In this document: positions 1 through 6,794 of the stretch, piece by piece
How the letters are laid out: each line of letters begins with the position of its first letter
Position numbering within the stretch: the first letter of the stretch is position 1
Program-made: the position numbers and the translations under genes
Notes under the pieces: model-generated
The model's input: the letters and a program-made list of their open reading frames with translations, nothing else
Told to the model about the DNA's origin: nothing
Databases searched by the model: none
Origin: Escherichia phage pO91
Sequence record: OR204650.1
Reading direction: 5' to 3' (one strand)
DNA length: 39,650 bases

Positions 1-50
1 TCTATGAGTCTCTATCTGTATAGTGTTACAGTATAACATTACGTCCTACA

Positions 51-159
51 CCTACAGTCTAACTACCTACAGTCTAACTACCTACAGTCATTGACTCCTG
101 CTGTACCTACAGTCCTACAACCATAAGACGCTCACAGCCTACAGTCATAGACCTACAGT
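51..159. repeat. Left-end array of short direct repeats (CCTACAGT, 6 copies)
   Basis: CCTACAGT at 51, 66, 81, 106, 138 and 152 with irregular spacing; the position matches the short-repeat arrays next to the T7 terminal repeat. Confidence 0.6.
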
Positions 160-270
160 TCATAGACACAAAACTATAGACTTAAGGTCTAATACATGTT
201 AGTCAAAGACTATATCCTCTTACACCATGAGGCCGACGATAGCTCAATCAATATTATTTAAGATTACCTA

Positions 271-299
271 TTGACTATAGGTCTAGACTATGGCTTAAT
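271..299 (+). promoter_or_regulatory. Weak candidate sigma70 promoter (A1-like position)
   Basis: TTGACT at 271-276, 17-nt spacer, CTTAAT at 294-299; the -10 is a poor match to TATAAT. Confidence 0.25.
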
Positions 300-411
300 A
301 GCTTCCGTCAACACGACACGGCAACAACCGGATAGTGAAGACGCCGGGTCATCCCGGTTAAGTAGACAGCCTGATAAGTCATACGAACAACAGGCAGATG
401 ACAGAAAGTAG

Positions 412-441
412 TTGACAAGATGTACCGACTTAACGTAGTAT
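412..441 (+). promoter_or_regulatory. Host sigma70 early promoter (T7 A3-like)
   Basis: TTGACA at 412-417, 18-nt spacer, TAGTAT at 436-441; flanking sequence closely resembles the T7 A2/A3 promoter region. Confidence 0.6.
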
Positions 442-499
442 GTACCACATCGAAACAACGGTGATGACCAACACTGAAATGGTCTACCTGAAGTCCTCT

Positions 500-600
500 G
501 ACTGAAGGGAATGCTCTTTAACAATCTGGATAAACTCTTAATGTGCGCCGATAGCTAGCTTGCTAGCGATAGCGACTAACTACAGGGTCTTTAAGTCTAC
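500..600 (+). promoter_or_regulatory. Putative RNA processing region upstream of gene 0.3 (R0.3-like)
   Basis: GCTCTTTAACAATCTGG at 513-529 matches the T7 leader at the R0.3 RNase III site; adjacent GCTAGC-TT-GCTAGC palindrome. Confidence 0.3.
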
Positions 601-648
601 ATCTGAAGGCTCTGAATGATAGTCACTAACAACTGAGAGGATATAACT

Positions 649-1155
649 ATGGAACGTAACGCTAACGCATACTATGAACTGCTGGCTGCAACCGTTGAGG
701 CATTTAACGAGCGTATTCAGTATGACGAAATAGCTGAAGGTGACGACTACAGCGATGCACTGCATGAAGTCGTAGACGGTCAGGTTCCGCACTATTATCA
801 CGAGATTTTCACGGTGATGGCTGCTGATGGTATATACCACGAGTTTGAGGACTCTGGGCTGATGCCTGATACCAAGGACGTAACGCGCATACTGCAAGCC
901 CGCATCTATGAGGCGCTATATAACGACGTGTCTAATAGCTCGGATGTAGTTTGGTTTGAGGCTGAAGAGAGCGACGAAGAGGATGAGTATTGGGTAGTTG
1001 ACGCTAAAACAGGCGCAATAATTGAGCAAGCTGTATCACTTAACGACGCTATTGCACGTGCCAAAGACCTCTATGGGGTGGGGCATCACATGAAAGTCGA
1101 AGACATCAACGATAACGTAGTGTTCGACCCTGCTACTGAAGAGGACTGCGAGTGA
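649..1155 (+). CDS. ocr: Ocr-like DNA-mimic anti-restriction protein (T7 gene 0.3 homolog) with C-terminal extension
   Basis: First ~100 aa align with recalled T7 Ocr ([34 protein letters not shown]); acidic; GAGAGGA RBS; first phage gene after the early promoter; 168 aa versus 117 aa in T7. Confidence 0.85.
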
Positions 1156-1310
1156 TGGTAACTTATGGTCTCTGTCAACAACACGTCAACACCGCCCGGA
1201 TTATGGTCAAGACCGGGCAATTAAACCATGATGCGACTATGCGATACCTGAAAGCGGTCTATGAGGGCCGCAAGCGTATACACGACAGTTTGCACGCTGA
1301 GGATAAACAA
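1155..1310 (+). CDS. Hypothetical early protein (51 aa)
   Basis: ATG overlaps the ocr stop (TGATG); ends with TGA 2 nt before the next ATG; not in the ORF track (under 60 aa). Confidence 0.4.
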
Positions 1311-1312
1311 CA

Positions 1313-1465
1313 ATGAAAATGTATAATGTGGTAGTGGTGAACAATAAAACAGGCGTTAAAGTGGTCATAAATGATTCACCGTTAACCCATTCAGAAGGCT
1401 GCGCTATGTTAGCTAAACTGACCAAATACGCCTGGAGAACCGAAAAATTAGAGCAAATCGGTTGA
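1313..1465 (+). CDS. Hypothetical early protein (50 aa)
   Basis: GAGGA RBS 8 nt upstream of ATG at 1313; hand-translated MKMYNVVVVNNKTGVKVVINDSPLTHSEGCAMLAKLTKYAWRTEKLEQIG. Confidence 0.45.
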   Translation: MKMYNVVVVNNKTGVKVVINDSPLTHSEGCAMLAKLTKYAWRTEKLEQIG

Positions 1466-1581
1466 CTTTCTGTAACCAAGATGACTACCGTAGCGGTAGA
1501 AGTGTAGGAGAGTGATAGACGAGAGGTCATCGACTGATAGGTGGCCTCAAAGATTACCACTTGCATTAATAGGAGCTAACT

Positions 1582-1668
1582 ATGAGTATTGGACATTTGG
1601 TATGCTTATCTCCGGTCATCTTTCTGATAGCTTGGGGGATATACGATTGTATTAAACGGAAATCACCA
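1582..1668 (+). CDS. Hypothetical small hydrophobic peptide (28 aa)
   Basis: AGGAG RBS at 1571-1575; ATG at 1582; stop overlaps the next start (ATGA); MSIGHLVCLSPVIFLIAWGIYDCIKRKSP. Confidence 0.3.
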
Positions 1669-1865
1669 TGAGTAGCGCACTATTGATAGCCATAGGCTAT
1701 GGACTTATCGCCTACGTGCTGGCGAAAGACATCAACAAAGCGCGTAAAGTCTACAAATTCAACTATGTACGTCTGGGCCGCTGGACTGTACGCCAACCTA
1801 ACGGACGATTCATGTGCAACCTCGCGAACGTCTGGGATATAGCAACCTTAGGGAGTAAACTGTAA
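1668..1865 (+). CDS. Hypothetical early protein with N-terminal hydrophobic helix (65 aa)
   Basis: ORF track; start coupled to the upstream ORF stop; N-terminus LLIAIGYGLIAYVLA looks like a transmembrane segment. Confidence 0.5.
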   Translation: MSSALLIAIGYGLIAYVLAKDINKARKVYKFNYVRLGRWTVRQPNGRFMCNLANVWDIATLGSKL

Positions 1866-2125
1866 TGAAAACCGTATACACTCACAAATCATCAAGCCGT
1901 AGCCGCATGGAGCAGGTCCAGCGCGATATGTTCTTACAGCGCCGCATGAGAGCAGAAGGCCATAAGTCCGAGCTGATGTGTCTGGCGTATGGTGGACGAC
2001 CAATCACCGACGATGGTAAACTTCTGGTCTCAGGCTGGAAGGCGATAGACCAACGGTCAACCATCAAGCACACGACTCATGGTGACTTCAGTCATCTTCA
2101 CGCTAACCCACTGATATGCAAGTAA
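1865..2125 (+). CDS. Hypothetical early protein (86 aa)
   Basis: ORF track; ATG overlaps the previous stop (TAATG); basic, no recognisable motif. Confidence 0.5.
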   Translation: MKTVYTHKSSSRSRMEQVQRDMFLQRRMRAEGHKSELMCLAYGGRPITDDGKLLVSGWKAIDQRSTIKHTTHGDFSHLHANPLICK

Positions 2126-2130
2126 TTCTG

Positions 2131-2153
2131 ACTTAACTATCACTATAGGACTC
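2131..2153 (+). promoter_or_regulatory. Phage RNAP promoter-like site upstream of the RNA polymerase gene
   Basis: ACTTAACTATCACTATAGGACTC; matches the window consensus except -14 T and +3 A; followed by GACTCAAGGTC and a GGTCT/AGACC hairpin. Confidence 0.5.
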
Positions 2154-2222
2154 AAGGTCTAAGACTCCAAGTGAAAGACCAAATAGACTTTAAGTGAAAG
2201 ACTAATAACAAGGACTTTAAGT

Positions 2223-4904
2223 ATGAGCGTCATCTCTATTGATAAACAGGACTTCTCTGATGTGTCGAACGCCATTGAGCCGTTTAACCTGCTGGCTGAC
2301 CATTATGGGCAAGACCTTGCAGTCAAGCAGCTTCAGCTTGAGCATGAGGCATACACTGAAGGCGAGCGACGTTTCATCAAGAACCTTGAGCGCCAGACTG
2401 AGCGCGGGGAACTGGCAGACAATCAGGTCGCCAAGCCTTTGATGCAGACTCTGGTCCCTAAGATTGCGCAAGCAGTCAAGGAGTGGCACGAAGGCCAAGA
2501 CGGGAAGCTGTCAACCTCTCGTCCGAGCGTAGCGTTCACCATGTTGAGCACTGAAGAGAAGGCCGTAAAGGACCGCTCTCTGCGCATCTCCTGTGAGTCT
2601 GCTGCGGTTATCATACTGAAGGTCATCCTCTCCAAGTTGGTCAAGCCTGAAGGGATACCGATTACACCGATGGCCTCCGCGATAGGTCGCACACTTGAGG
2701 ATGAAATCCGCTTCGGTCGAATCAGAGACAAGGAGCAGGAGCACTTCAAGAAGGCGATAGCTGAGAACCTGAACAAGCGAGCTGGGGTATCCTATAAGAA
2801 AGCCTACATGCAAGCGGTTGAGGCCTCCATGCTGGAGCAAGGCCAACTGGAAGATGCGTGGGGGACTTGGAGTCCTACCGAGTCGGTACACGTTGGCATC
2901 AAGATGCTTGAGATTGTCATCCAGTCTACACAACTGGTCGAGCTTAAGCGTTATGGTGCTGGTAATGTAGCGGCTGATGTCGAGATGGTCCATCTGTCAG
3001 AATTCTGGGTCAAGAAGATGGCACAACGTGGCTTCAACCTTGCGGGTATCGCGCCAGTCTATCAACCTTGCGTAGTTCCACCAAAGCCGTGGACTGGAGT
3101 CGTAGGCGGTGGTTACTGGGCTAAAGGTCGCAGACCGTTACCATTGATTCGCTTAGGGTCTAAGTCTGCGGTAGCACGTTACGAAGACGTGTACATGCCT
3201 GAAGTCTATGACGCTGTGAACATCATCCAGAATACACCTTGGAAAGTTAACAAGAAGGTTCTGGACGTGGTGAACATGGTCGAGAAGCTGAACAACACGC
3301 CTATTGATGACATCCCTCAGATGGAACCACTGAAGCCTGAGGACTATGCTGGTGAGACCGAGGAGGAACTCAAGGCATGGAAGAAGGCTGCTGCTGGTAT
3401 CTATCGCCGCGAGAAGGCCCGACAGTCACGCAGGTTGTCACTGAGCTTTATCGTTAACCAAGCGAACAAGTTCTCTCAGTTCAAGGCCATCTGGTTCCCG
3501 TACAACATGGACTGGCGCGGTCGCGTCTACGCTGTCCCGATGTTCAACCCTCAGGGTAACGACATGCAGAAGGGTCTCCTGACTCTGGCAGTCGGCAAGC
3601 CTATTGGTGCTGGCGGTTTCAAATGGCTAAAGGTACACGGGGCAAACTGCGCGGGTGTCGATAAAGTAACATTTGAGGAGCGCATAAAGTGGGTGGAGGA
3701 CAACCACGACAACATCATGGCTGCTGCTAAGGAACCTATGGATAGCATTGAGTGGTGGGGCAAGTTAGACTCTCCGTTCTGCTTCCTAGCGTTCTGCTTC
3801 GAGTATGCTGGCGTAATGCACCACGGCTTGTCTTACAACTGCTCGCTGCCGATAGCGTTCGATGGGTCCTGCTCTGGGATTCAGCACTTCAGCGCGATGC
3901 TTCGTGACCACATCGGTGGACATGCAGTAAACCTAACGCCATCAGGTAAGGTCCAAGACATCTACCGCATTGTGTCTGACCGCATCGAGGAGGAGCTTAA
4001 AGTCCTGCTTGTTAGCGGTACGGACAACGAGATGGTAACTCACGAGGACAAGAAAACTGGTGAGATTACCGAGCGCCTCAAGCTGGGGACACGAGAGCTG
4101 GCCCGTCAGTGGCTGACCTACGGTATGTCACGCAAGGTCACTAAGCGTTCGGTCATGACTCTAGCCTACGGGTCGAAAGAGTACGGCTTCGCAGACCAAG
4201 TTTACGAGGACATCGTGATGCCAGCGATTGACTCAGGGTCTGGCGCTATGTTCACCGAACCCAGCCAAGCGTCTCGCTTCATGGCTAAGATGATTTGGGA
4301 AGCTGTGAGTGTGACCGTAGTTGCTGCGGTTGACGCGATGAAATGGCTTCAAGGTGCCGCCAAGCTGCTGGCTGCTGAAGTGAAGGACAAGAAGACTGGC
4401 GAAATCCTGAAGCCATGCCTTCCGGTACACTGGGTCACTCCTGATGGTTTCCCGGTCTGGCAGGAATACCGCAAGAAGGATACCACACGTTTGAACCTGA
4501 TGTTCTTAGGATCATTCAACCTTCAGCCTACAGTCAACAAAGGAACGAAGAAAGAGCTGGACAAGCACAAGCAGGAGTCAGGCATTAGCCCGAACTTCGT
4601 CCACTCACAAGATGGTAGTCACCTCCGCAAGACTGTAGTCCACACGCACCGCAAGTACGGTGTGATGTCATTCGCAGTTATCCACGATAGCTTTGGGACC
4701 ATCCCGGCTGACGCTGAGTATCTGTTCCGTGGTGTCCGTGAGACGATGGTCGAGACCTACCGCGATAACGATGTGCTGCTTGACTTCTACGAGCAGTTCG
4801 AATACCAGCTTCACGAGAGTCAGCGCGACAAGTTGCCTGAGCTTCCGAAGAAAGGTAAACTGAATATCGAAGACATCTTGTCTTCAGACTTTGCATTCGC
4901 TTAA
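2223..4904 (+). CDS. Single-subunit DNA-directed RNA polymerase (T7 gene 1 homolog)
   Basis: 893 aa, collinear with recalled T7 RNAP over the full length (PFN.LADHYG, FPYNMDWRGRVYA, SPFCFLAFCFEY, GSCSGIQHFSAML, HDSFGT, C-terminal FAFA). Confidence 0.97.
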   Translation: MSVISIDKQDFSDVSNAIEPFNLLADHYGQDLAVKQLQLEHEAYTEGERRFIKNLERQTERGELADNQVAKPLMQTLVPKIAQAVKEWHEGQDGKLSTSRPSVAFTMLSTEEKAVKDRSLRISCESAAVIILKVILSKLVKPEGIPITPMASAIGRTLEDEIRFGRIRDKEQEHFKKAIAENLNKRAGVSYKKAYMQAVEASMLEQGQLEDAWGTWSPTESVHVGIKMLEIVIQSTQLVELKRYGAGNVAADVEMVHLSEFWVKKMAQRGFNLAGIAPVYQPCVVPPKPWTGVVGGGYWAKGRRPLPLIRLGSKSAVARYEDVYMPEVYDAVNIIQNTPWKVNKKVLDVVNMVEKLNNTPIDDIPQMEPLKPEDYAGETEEELKAWKKAAAGIYRREKARQSRRLSLSFIVNQANKFSQFKAIWFPYNMDWRGRVYAVPMFNPQGNDMQKGLLTLAVGKPIGAGGFKWLKVHGANCAGVDKVTFEERIKWVEDNHDNIMAAAKEPMDSIEWWGKLDSPFCFLAFCFEYAGVMHHGLSYNCSLPIAFDGSCSGIQHFSAMLRDHIGGHAVNLTPSGKVQDIYRIVSDRIEEELKVLLVSGTDNEMVTHEDKKTGEITERLKLGTRELARQWLTYGMSRKVTKRSVMTLAYGSKEYGFADQVYEDIVMPAIDSGSGAMFTEPSQASRFMAKMIWEAVSVTVVAAVDAMKWLQGAAKLLAAEVKDKKTGEILKPCLPVHWVTPDGFPVWQEYRKKDTTRLNLMFLGSFNLQPTVNKGTKKELDKHKQESGISPNFVHSQDGSHLRKTVVHTHRKYGVMSFAVIHDSFGTIPADAEYLFRGVRETMVETYRDNDVLLDFYEQFEYQLHESQRDKLPELPKKGKLNIEDILSSDFAFA

Positions 4905-4920
4905 CAGGAGAGAGAGAGTT

Positions 4921-5136
4921 ATGAAATTTGCACACAAGCAGGCTGGCGTTAAGGGCGGGACTCAAATCGTGACCGTAACAGAACACAACGGCAAGGGTCT
5001 GGTGAAGACCACGGTCATTCCTACCGAAATGTCAAAGCAGCTTAACGTCCCATTCAAGACCCTCGTCTATCTTGTGGAATCCAGCCACGAGAAATACCTG
5101 AAAGACGCAGTGTCCAAGCTGGAGCAGACCAAATGA
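4921..5136 (+). CDS. Hypothetical protein (71 aa) between gene 1 and gene 1.1
   Basis: AGGAGAGAGAGAG RBS then ATG at 4921; the track ORF starts 30 nt upstream, but this ATG has the RBS. Confidence 0.5.
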   Translation: MKFAHKQAGVKGGTQIVTVTEHNGKGLVKTTVIPTEMSKQLNVPFKTLVYLVESSHEKYLKDAVSKLEQTK

Positions 5137-5210
5137 CAGACCTACAGTTACTGGCCTTGTGGCTGGGAGCACTCGCAGTATTCACTTTAATACAACGCAG
5201 AAGAGGTTAA

Positions 5211-5233
5211 CCTAAACTATCACTATAGGATTA
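5211..5233 (+). promoter_or_regulatory. Phage RNAP promoter (phi1.1-like)
   Basis: CCTAAACTATCACTATAGGATTA; -16 to +2 match the window consensus. Confidence 0.75.
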
Positions 5234-5276
5234 GACTCAAGGTCATGACTCAAAGTCGTGGCCTTCATGATTAACC
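5231..5276 (+). promoter_or_regulatory. Conserved hairpin element, copy 1 (putative RNase III site, R1.1-like position)
   Basis: TTAGACTCAAGGTCA...TGGCCTTCATGATTAAC; 7-bp stem AAGGTCA/TGGCCTT (one G-U) at 5239-5245 and 5259-5265; same element at 12379 and 35600. Confidence 0.5.
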
Positions 5277-5306
5277 CTAAATAAACACTACTGGAGATTT
5301 AACCAC

Positions 5307-5486
5307 ATGTATCAGAACACTATCAACTTCGAGCGCATCCGTGAACGTCAGCAGACTGAAGATTACATTCCGAAGGGCCGCAAGCTGAACAAGACCAAGC
5401 GTGGCGGTGGTGTCAAGGGTGCTTTCCGTAACGCTGAAGGCAAAGACTCTCTGGTCAACCAAGAGAAATACTTCGTAGGAGCATAA
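5307..5486 (+). CDS. Gene 1.1-like small basic protein (59 aa)
   Basis: GGAG RBS; contains GRKLNKTKR as in recalled T7 gp1.1; under 60 aa so absent from the ORF track; the overlapping minus-strand track ORF is discounted. Confidence 0.7.
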   Translation: MYQNTINFERIRERQQTEDYIPKGRKLNKTKRGGGVKGAFRNAEGKDSLVNQEKYFVGA

Positions 5487-5490
5487 CGCT

Positions 5491-5754
5491 ATGGGCCGAC
5501 TTTATAGTGGCAACCTAAACGCTTTCAAAGCAGCGTGTAACAGGCTCTATCAGTTAGACTTCGCTGTCATATCTCAAGAGTTTCAAGACCATGTGTCACG
5601 CCAAGAGTGCATGAAACTCAGGGTGGAGGACCGAACTGGTAACATCTTCTCGCTTGAGTCCTTCGCACATTACGATGAAGACGTGCTGTATAATACTGCA
5701 ACCAACTACCTAAACGGTATCGCTGACCAACTCGACACATGGAGCAAAGCATAA
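5491..5754 (+). CDS. Gene 1.2 homolog (inhibitor of host dGTP triphosphohydrolase)
   Basis: MGRLYSGNLNAFKAA...L.VEDRTGN...HYDEDVLYN nearly collinear with recalled T7 gp1.2. Confidence 0.9.
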   Translation: MGRLYSGNLNAFKAACNRLYQLDFAVISQEFQDHVSRQECMKLRVEDRTGNIFSLESFAHYDEDVLYNTATNYLNGIADQLDTWSKA

Positions 5755-6794
5755 TGACAACTATCAAAACCAACCCACACCGCGCTGTAGATTACTCTGA
5801 GTCTGGCATTAAGAAGGCACTGGAAGCAGCAGGGTCTCTGGAAGCTGAAGTGAAGTACGACGGTGTGCGGCTAAACCTCATGGTACTGCGTGAAGGTGAG
5901 ACCTACTGGCTGAGCCGTGAGTCGAAACCTCTGCCCGCCTTGGAGTGGATGAACTCTGAGCTAGGAAATGCGTGGACCCAAGCTGAATGGCGATGGTTCC
6001 TGCGTCAAGCTGGTTATGAAGGTATTGGCTTAATGATTGACGGCGAAGTCATGATCAAAGGTGTGGACTTCAACACCTCCTCAGGTATCATCCGAACGAA
6101 GTGGCTCAAGCCTAACAACGAGGAGTTCGCTGAATACTATCCGACGGGCACTGGAAAGAAGCTCCCGTTCTGGGGTGCCCGGTCACGACTTCAGGTTGTG
6201 GTCTACGGTGTCATCGACATGACAATCATTGCTGATCCGAAAGCCGAAGGTCCTATCCATAGCGTCACTCGCCTGAAGGCAGAAGCTATCGTCCCTCTCC
6301 TCCAGAAATACTTCCCGGAAATCGACTGGGTTCTGTCTGAGTCACACACGGTCTATGACCTTGAGTCGCTCAACTCCCTGTACGAAGAGAAGCGTCTGGA
6401 AGGACATGAGGGTCTGGTAGTCAAGGACCCACTTGGTAAATACAAGCGCGGCAAGAAGTCAGGCATGTGGAAAATGAAGCCGGAGGACACCATTGATGGT
6501 ATTGTGGTCGGACTGAATTGGGGGACTGAAGGTCTCGCCAACGAAGGTAAGGTGATTGGGTTCGACGTTCTGCTTGAGAATGGCATGGTAGTTGCTGCTA
6601 ACAATATCTCTCAGGCTATGATGGATGAGTTCACTGAGGCAGTGCGTCACGCTGAGTCAATTGGCATGGGGATGCCTTACACCAACTTTCAGTGTGAAGT
6701 ATCCTACATGGAGATGACACCAGATGGCTCCTTACGTCACCCTAGCTTCAAGTGCTGGCGCGGGACGGAAGATAACCCGACAATTAAGAGCTAA
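5754..6794 (+). CDS. ATP-dependent DNA ligase (T7 gene 1.3 homolog)
   Basis: Adenylation motif KYDGVR, then EGHEGLVVKDP, YKRGKKSGMWKMKPE, PDGSLRHPSF; ATG at 5754 overlaps the gene 1.2 stop. Confidence 0.95.
   Translation: MTTIKTNPHRAVDYSESGIKKALEAAGSLEAEVKYDGVRLNLMVLREGETYWLSRESKPLPALEWMNSELGNAWTQAEWRWFLRQAGYEGIGLMIDGEVMIKGVDFNTSSGIIRTKWLKPNNEEFAEYYPTGTGKKLPFWGARSRLQVVVYGVIDMTIIADPKAEGPIHSVTRLKAEAIVPLLQKYFPEIDWVLSESHTVYDLESLNSLYEEKRLEGHEGLVVKDPLGKYKRGKKSGMWKMKPEDTIDGIVVGLNWGTEGLANEGKVIGFDVLLENGMVVAANNISQAMMDEFTEAVRHAESIGMGMPYTNFQCEVSYMEMTPDGSLRHPSFKCWRGTEDNPTIKS

Follow-up and report, generated by a model that had tools for sequence, protein, structure and literature searches.

Gene content of the early block of phage pO91

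The subject of this analysis is the early region of Escherichia phage pO91, in which a block of small genes separates ocr (gene 0.3) from the RNA polymerase gene (gene 1). The sequence analyzed, 39,650 nucleotides (nt) of record OR204650.1, is referred to here at its full length as the window. The block contains five open reading frames (ORFs), encoding proteins of 53, 50, 29, 65, and 86 amino acids (aa), together with a conserved hairpin, and a phage promoter core lies at its right edge (Table 1). Window positions 600 to 2300 matched 249 phage records at 80 to 99% DNA identity, and the best matches, at ~88 to 92%, were to Kayfunavirus, the K1F-like phages of the T7 group. Direct counterparts of ocr, the RNA polymerase, and the intervening small ORFs were found in K1F and about two dozen related loci, and the gene order was identical in K1F and 23 related loci; all statements made here on the K1F genome rest on database records. 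The block is very probably the standard class I (early) accessory region of Kayfunavirus, syntenic with those of T7 and T3. The K1F-type early region was known before, and the kinase-less state is known to be normal for K1F-like phages.

The five ORFs are real genes under purifying selection and not chance ORFs. In comparisons with relatives, the nonsynonymous-to-synonymous ratio (pN/pS) in frame was 0.23 for the 53-aa ORF, 0.46 for the 29-aa ORF, 0.28 for the 65-aa ORF, and 0.20 for the 86-aa ORF, versus ~0.8 to 3.3 in the off-frames (0.93 to 1.30 for the 29-aa ORF). A Shine-Dalgarno motif lies 6 to 10 nt 5' of four of the five ORFs; the exception is the 65-aa ORF, which depends on an ATGA overlap. 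The genes form two translationally coupled sub-blocks. In one, ocr and the 53- and 50-aa ORFs overlap by 1 and 4 nt, and in the other, the 29-, 65-, and 86-aa ORFs overlap by 4 and 1 nt. A 116-nt gap (positions 1466 to 1581), which contains the conserved hairpin, parts the two.

A preliminary description of this DNA had reported five tightly coupled ORFs of 51, 50, 28, 65, and 86 aa, two of them with hydrophobic N termini, in the early region, and had stated that the 0.7 kinase is missing. As an observation this was largely right; the interpretation attached to it, which is taken up below, was partly wrong. All five ORFs are present and three of the lengths are correct, but the first encodes 53 aa (54 from the GTG) and the third encodes 29. 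The coupling holds within each sub-block but is interrupted by the gap between them. The hydrophobic N termini belong to the 29- and 65-aa ORFs, with Kyte-Doolittle (KD) maxima over 15 residues of 2.45 and 2.33, respectively, and the placing of the genes in the early class, which the host polymerase transcribes, stands. The absence of the kinase was borne out as well. When the T7 and T3 0.7 kinases and two short 0.7 kinases of the K1F clade were used in tblastn searches of the whole window, the best E value was 0.29. No ORF of ~240 to 370 aa that contains the glycine loop GxGHFSAA and VIKVGFKKEDSGAAY is present in the block, its largest ORF being that of 86 aa.

Table 1. Features of the early block and its borders in the window, with family assignments made by sequence comparison
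Feature	Position	Strand	Remark
Gene 0.3 (ocr, DNA-mimic anti-restriction protein), 168 aa	649..1155	+	Left edge of block
ORF assigned to the Gp0.4 family (K1F "gp0.35"), 53 aa from ATG, or 54 aa from GTG 1152	1155..1316	+	
Small mobile gene, 50 aa	1313..1465	+	
Predicted R0.5 RNase III site homologue, irregular hairpin	1509..1563	+	Between the two coupled sub-blocks
Hydrophobic peptide, 29 aa, gene 0.5 position	1582..1671	+	
ORF assigned as T3-type gp0.6 (K1F "gene 0.6"/gp0.37), 65 aa	1668..1865	+	
K1F gp0.38-family protein, 86 aa	1865..2125	+	
Phage RNA polymerase promoter core	2136..2149	+	Right edge of block
RNA polymerase gene (gene 1)	2223-4904		Right neighbour

The Gp0.4-family ORF and cell division

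By profile comparison, the ORF that follows ocr belongs to the T7 Gp0.4 family as a divergent member. The 53-aa protein is 41% identical to T7 gp0.4 over 41 residues (blastp against a small database) and ~40% identical overall, and a tblastn search of the window with T7 0.4 gave no match at E values up to 1. When a profile of 22 distinct family members from the related loci was aligned by hhalign with one of 14 gp0.4 sequences from T7-like loci, a probability of 93.2% was obtained (P 2.9e-7, 41 columns). After three intermediate sequences had been removed, the value was still 86.6% (P 4.5e-6), and the controls, made with a reversed profile and three unrelated profiles, were negative (P 0.03 to 0.8). 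The 53-aa protein and T7 gp0.4 also match the same three PHROGs with reversed strengths, the former matching phrog_5058 strongly and phrog_7202 and phrog_25044 weakly. The precomputed label PF26807, which is Phage_T7_GP04 in contig annotation, was carried by 64 of 64 relatives of the 53-aa protein in a large protein collection and by the syntenic gene in six contigs. A Pfam scan of the ORF itself was empty because the Pfam copy scanned lacks the PF26807 model.

The ocr stop codon (TGA, 1153 to 1155) shares one nucleotide with the start codon of the 53-aa ORF (ATG, 1155 to 1157), and in T7 the end of 0.3 and the start of 0.4 fall on the same position, 1278. In an AlphaFold2 (AF2) model, the 53-aa protein forms a small helical hairpin of two helices, residues 8 to 19 and 25 to 51, with a predicted local distance difference test (pLDDT) score of 76.7. 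The closest BFVD folds beyond its own family were small proteins of T7-like phages (E 0.04 to 0.4). A T7-like phage that has the 0.7 kinase was also seen to encode a 69-aa protein (locus L034, 588 to 797) that falls in the K1F-type Gp0.4 subfamily and not in the T7 type; the division between the two Gp0.4 subfamilies therefore does not strictly follow that between the two phage genera.

T7 Gp0.4 is an inhibitor of FtsZ (Kiro et al. 2013, as cited in PMC9372555), which it binds at the synergy loop (PMC13423816). Its toxicity is abolished by each of the substitutions V15A, V22A, W28A/L, M32A, L35A/P, and Y39A, and W28L and W28A also abolish the interaction with FtsZ (PMC13423816). In the hhalign register, V15, V22, W28, M32, L35, and Y39 of T7 correspond to V11, V18, H25, M29, L32, and Y36 of the window protein. 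Five of these six FtsZ-contact residues are identical, and they are invariant or nearly so in the family. At the positions that contact CapRel(Ebc), A12, T14, L16, S19, and R23 are replaced by Q, H, N, R, and K, with none of the five identical. With the FtsZ face largely kept and the CapRel(Ebc) face not, these phages are predicted to inhibit division without triggering the CapRel(Ebc) defense. The 53-aa protein is probably an FtsZ-binding inhibitor of cell division.

Infection with K1F yields filaments with multiple Z-rings (PMC9372555). The same 2022 study reported a block of FtsZ by K1F, found no BLAST similarity, stated that K1F "lacks the 0.4 genes," described the inhibitor as "currently unknown," and concluded that it is novel (PMC9372555). 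A 49-aa ORF of K1F (K1F positions 1623 to 1772) encodes a protein 73% identical to the 53-aa protein, and this protein was included in the family profile used for hhalign. From these alignments we infer that the 49-aa gene is the likeliest source of the K1F FtsZ phenotype; the change of W to H leaves real doubt.

The R0.5 hairpin and the genes around it

The hairpin that parts the sub-blocks is recognizable, by alignment and fold, as a homologue of the RNase III site R0.5, which in T7 lies between genes 0.4 and 0.5. Positions 1510 to 1581 are 89 to 98% identical in all relatives, above the flanking genes. The predicted fold has two stems and an internal loop, with a free energy of -19.3 kcal/mol and a z score of -3.25 (T7 R0.5, -3.05; T3, -5.17). 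The sequence aligned block for block with the T3-annotated R0.5 stem-loop and with the T7 0.4-0.5 intergenic stretch, in the pattern GTGATAGAC..AGGTC..GTGGCCT..ATGATTA.CACTT. The site resembles R0.5 of T7 and T3 in these sequence blocks, in its two-stem hairpin with an internal loop, and in its place, with 0.4 to one side of it and 0.5/0.6 to the other, but it differs in its loop and upper-stem sequence, and some relatives have two or three copies around inserted cassettes. An Rfam scan of window positions 1 to 6000 at E values up to 1 gave no match, and no Rfam family covers such sites.

Copies of R0.5-like hairpins flank ORF cassettes in loci L002 (1568 to 1618 and 1951 to 2077), L013 (1740 to 1790 and 2123 to 2234), L017, and L022, the last with three copies. 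This arrangement suggests that the duplicated hairpins are recombination junctions for the exchange of early-gene cassettes. A 47-aa GTG ORF (1512 to 1655), the basis of phrog_36394, overlaps the hairpin and the start of the 29-aa gene. It was rejected as a gene and is an annotation artefact, with a pN/pS of 0.98 in its own frame and a GTG that lies within the R0.5 stem, and phrog_36394 appears to be built on a spurious ORF. Elsewhere, a hairpin at ~570 to 625, upstream of ocr, has a z score of -2.46 and aligns with T3 R0.3 and with the stretch 5' of T7 gene 0.3; it is probably the R0.3 RNase III site. A candidate R1-type RNase III hairpin in 2123 to 2225 was discarded, as its fold was no better than that of shuffled sequences (z -0.24).

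On the left of R0.5, the 53-aa ORF is followed by the 50-aa gene, which was not found in the 21 Kayfunavirus loci first examined or in any Kayfunavirus record of the phage collection. It occurs on 13 contigs and stands directly 3' of a Phage_T7_GP04 gene in all six of the contexts shown. Its only DNA-level relative is in the Klebsiella myovirus KP13-16, where a match of 89% nt identity is confined to window positions 1309 to 1473. The two copies of the ORF differ by 9 synonymous and 8 nonsynonymous codon changes (pN/pS ~0.27). Weaker relatives of the protein occur in Vequintavirinae, and GAGG lies 10 nt 5' of the ORF. This distribution marks the 50-aa gene as a rare, horizontally moving small gene, inserted after the gp0.4-like gene; that this gene, common to a podovirus and myoviruses, is a mobile counter-defense factor is conceivable but improbable.

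The DNA in common with the myovirus ends at TTGACTTTCTGT (KP13-16, locus L024, 2641 to 2680; window 1462 to 1473). In KP13-16, TTGACTTTCTGT serves as the -35 element of a promoter with the perfect sequence TTGACT-N16-TATAAT; of its two elements, only the -35 is retained in the window. One contig with the 50-aa gene (L125, 3165 to 4013) has a 282-aa Bro-N domain protein instead of the 29-aa/0.6 pair, a further cassette exchange. A resemblance between the 50-aa protein and the C-terminal extension of ocr, through a "VV..KTG" motif, was not significant (shuffle P ~0.11).

On the right of R0.5, the 29-aa peptide has one predicted membrane helix and a KRK tail. Its ORF is preceded by AGGAG 6 nt upstream and shares the ATGA overlap with the 65-aa ORF. 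The peptide, which is small, hydrophobic, and encoded right after R0.5, is a positional analogue only of T7 gp0.5. No blastp match between the two was found, and T7 gp0.5 belongs to phrog_16572 while the 29-aa peptide matches no PHROG. In the same slot, K1F and some relatives have a different hydrophobic ORF of 55 aa, or both.

The next gene is assigned as T3-type gp0.6. Its 65-aa product and T3 gp0.6 both match phrog_2385 (E 9.7e-31 and 9.1e-30, respectively), and the protein is 38 to 40% identical to T3 gp0.6 (blastp, 38% over 60 aa) and 91% identical to K1F 0.6. It has an N-terminal membrane helix, with the KD maximum at residues 4 to 18 (T3, 2.54 at residues 1 to 15), and a basic tail of ~45 aa. 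Like T3 gp0.6, it has 65 aa and an N-terminal hydrophobic helix and is encoded downstream of R0.5. Unlike in T3, a 29-aa ORF lies between R0.5 and 0.6 in the window, and the gene that follows is the 86-aa gene rather than 0.65 and 0.7. The 65-aa protein gave no match to T7 gp0.6A, and the two belong to separate PHROGs (T7 gp0.6A, phrog_8393). T7 gp0.6A is reportedly an inhibitor of MreB.

The last gene of the block encodes the 86-aa protein (phrog_7066, E 5e-44), which is named gp0.38 in one K1F annotation. The family is confined to K1F-like phages, is strongly conserved, and always stands last before gene 1, in the slot where T7 and T3 have 0.7. It is a narrow family of 136 clusters at an identity of ~70% or more, all on phage contigs of ~40 kb; a profile search of 1.84 billion protein representatives added only ~10 more distant members. 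The core motifs DDGKLL and TTxGDFxHL are conserved, and the N terminus comes in versions of 0, 22, and ~50 residues. Neither near nor distant members had a significant match in Pfam or NCBIfam, and a PDB profile search gave nothing below an E value of 0.6. T3 gp0.65 was tried as a relative and rejected (hhalign probability 1.3%).

At the left border, ocr matches PF08684 (Pfam, E 7e-31) and phrog_2568 (E 3e-54) and is 87% identical to K1F 0.3 and 52% identical to T7 0.3. At 168 aa, versus 117 aa in T7, it carries a C-terminal extension of ~55 aa (residues ~113 to 168). The extension is present in K1F and missing in several relatives, in which ocr has 110 to 114 aa, and it shows a weak PepSY-like match (E 0.014). 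At the right border, the promoter core ACTATCACTATAGG lies 87 nt upstream of gene 1 and recurs as an exact copy at 7 other sites of the window; 14 matches were found in total versus 3.5 expected. Seventeen related loci without a kinase have the core at -87 or -88. For the stretch immediately before gene 1, the T7 record gives no promoter other than the E. coli C promoter.

Architecture among relatives and alternative explanations

The related loci differ in how the region is filled. In the first type, to which the window and K1F belong, ocr and the Gp0.4-like gene are followed by variable cassettes, R0.5, a membrane peptide, 0.6, sometimes a cassette, the 86-aa gene, the phage promoter at -87, and gene 1, with no kinase. 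In a second type, a T3-type S-adenosylmethionine (SAM) hydrolase and a kinase-only protein of ~244 aa accompany 0.6 and the 86-aa gene, and in locus L124, ocr, a T7-type 0.4, and a kinase occur together with 0.6 and the 86-aa gene. It follows that the lack of the kinase, by loss or otherwise, is characteristic of a lineage within a mosaic region and not peculiar to the window. Cassette exchange is seen in the variable ORFs between fixed landmarks, in the duplicated R0.5-like hairpins, and in the 50-aa gene held in common with a myovirus.

The window resembles K1F in its genes and their order, with identities of 87% for ocr, 73% for the gp0.4-like protein, 91% for 0.6, and 84% for the 86-aa protein, and also in the R0.5 hairpin, in the phage promoter 87 nt before gene 1, and in having no kinase. 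It differs from K1F in the extra 50-aa gene and in having the 29-aa peptide where K1F has the 55-aa hydrophobic ORF. A 0.7-type kinase of 242 to 244 aa occurs in the K1F-clade loci L021, L022, L118, L119, L121, L123, and L124 (for example, L022, 1939 to 2673). This short kinase aligns only with residues 27 to 219 of T7 gp0.7 and therefore lacks the C-terminal host shut-off part, and its gene stands upstream of gene 0.6 and does not adjoin gene 1. An ORF of 140 to 144 aa lies between 0.6 and the 86-aa gene in L019, L021, L118, and L121 (for example, L121, 2579 to 3001), and the L121 copy is Cys rich (MCKTCAKCGETKSL...).

The preliminary description had read the five ORFs as uncharacterized genes, none of them like a T7 early protein, that replace the T7 0.4-0.7 region with unrelated material. 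That they form such a novel set is very unlikely. Plain BLAST does miss the link to gp0.4, both here and for K1F in PMC9372555, and the 50-, 29-, and 86-aa ORFs are indeed without a characterized relative. Profiles, however, assign the first ORF to the Gp0.4 family and group the 65-aa ORF with T3 gp0.6, which refutes the proposal for two of the five; profile searches, which the description had itself put forward as a check, returned confident homology to T7 gp0.4. The R0.5 site is retained, the genes run in the order of T7 on the left and of T3 on the right, and the layout is genus-wide, being found in K1F and hundreds of records. It is also unlikely that the shortest ORFs are not functional proteins, the 29-aa ORF serving as a leader that brings ribosomes to gene 0.6 and the 50-aa ORF being hitch-hiking DNA. 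A leader would fit the 65-aa gene, which has an ATGA overlap in place of its own Shine-Dalgarno motif, the relaxed pN/pS of 0.46, and the replacement of the 29-aa ORF by a different one in K1F; but of the three possible frames, that of the 29-aa ORF is still the most conserved, and the peptide has remained hydrophobic. Nearly all relatives do without the 50-aa ORF, yet its frame has stayed intact across a podovirus-myovirus transfer, with the low pN/pS and the upstream GAGG given above.

Several points weigh against parts of the reading of the block as a K1F-type early region with a division inhibitor at its left end. The W28 residue that is essential in T7 (PMC13423816) is an invariant histidine (His25) in the window family, and FtsZ binding could therefore be weakened or retargeted. 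We infer the tie between the K1F phenotype and the Gp0.4 homologue from the alignments. Covariation in the hairpin is thin, extending to 2 of 19 pairs (G-C to C-G in four sequences, of the second-copy type, and C-G to U-A in one), and RNase III cleavage is predicted from homology and folding only. The AF2 model of the 86-aa protein is poor (pLDDT 51.5, 16 sequences). The histidine, at a position where W28L and W28A eliminate both the interaction and the toxicity of T7 Gp0.4 (PMC13423816), and an identity to T7 Gp0.4 of only ~40% would fit a Gp0.4 homologue that is retargeted or inactive, with K1F-like phages blocking division through another protein, for instance a membrane peptide or the 86-aa protein. 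This alternative is somewhat unlikely, since identity is kept at the remaining five contact residues tested, which vary little or not at all in the family, the Gp0.4-like family is under purifying selection, and K1F does disturb FtsZ (PMC9372555). A further proposal concerns the 86-aa protein, which shares with gp0.7 of T7 and T3 nothing but its genomic slot, immediately before gene 1. It could be a relic of gp0.7, or a piece split off from it, that corresponds either to the host shut-off domain at the C terminus or to the N-terminal portion as far as the glycine loop and still provides part of the 0.7 function. Besides the slot, this would agree with the finding that in 92 T7/T3-like loci the 86-aa protein was not seen at a distance of up to 1.5 kb from the kinase gene, with weak colinear motifs in single-sequence hhalign (TDDGKL/ETCDGEL and GDFSHLHANPLI/GHFSAAYSHPLL), with the N termini of the long variants (MNMSNLVHAMD versus MNITDIMNAID), and with a shuffle P of ~0.03 in some tests. 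Against a gp0.7 alignment of 72 distinct sequences, however, profile-profile comparison gave P values of 0.12 to 0.23 for N-terminal, C-terminal, and full-length gp0.7, most pairwise shuffle tests were nonsignificant, and 86-aa homologues coexist with the 242- to 244-aa kinase in L022, L121, L123, and L124. Unsupported by profile comparison, shuffle tests, and kinase coexistence, descent of the 86-aa protein from gp0.7 is highly improbable. That it represents a new kind of early host-takeover or anti-defense effector is doubtful at best; if this were true, it might, for example, supply host-transcription shut-off where the C-terminal domain of gp0.7 is missing.

We favor a scheme in which the early region would combine a conserved backbone common to T7 and T3 with exchangeable small-gene cassettes, in the order ocr, Gp0.4-family gene, inserted mobile 50-aa gene, R0.5, 29-aa membrane peptide, T3-type gp0.6, 86-aa gp0.38-family protein, phage promoter, and gene 1. 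Host RNA polymerase would transcribe the block in the first minutes of infection, and RNase III would cut the transcript at R0.5 into two mRNAs, each of which would be translated as a coupled unit through its overlapping stop and start codons. From the promoter before gene 1, the phage polymerase would be able to transcribe the gene that encodes it, which would close a positive feedback loop. The 86-aa protein and the two peptides anchored in the membrane may act on host targets, and the Gp0.4 homologue would bind FtsZ on the face used by T7 Gp0.4, whereupon division of the infected cell would stop. The small gene after ocr is the foremost candidate for the inhibitor sought in PMC9372555, and this is the most useful result of the analysis.

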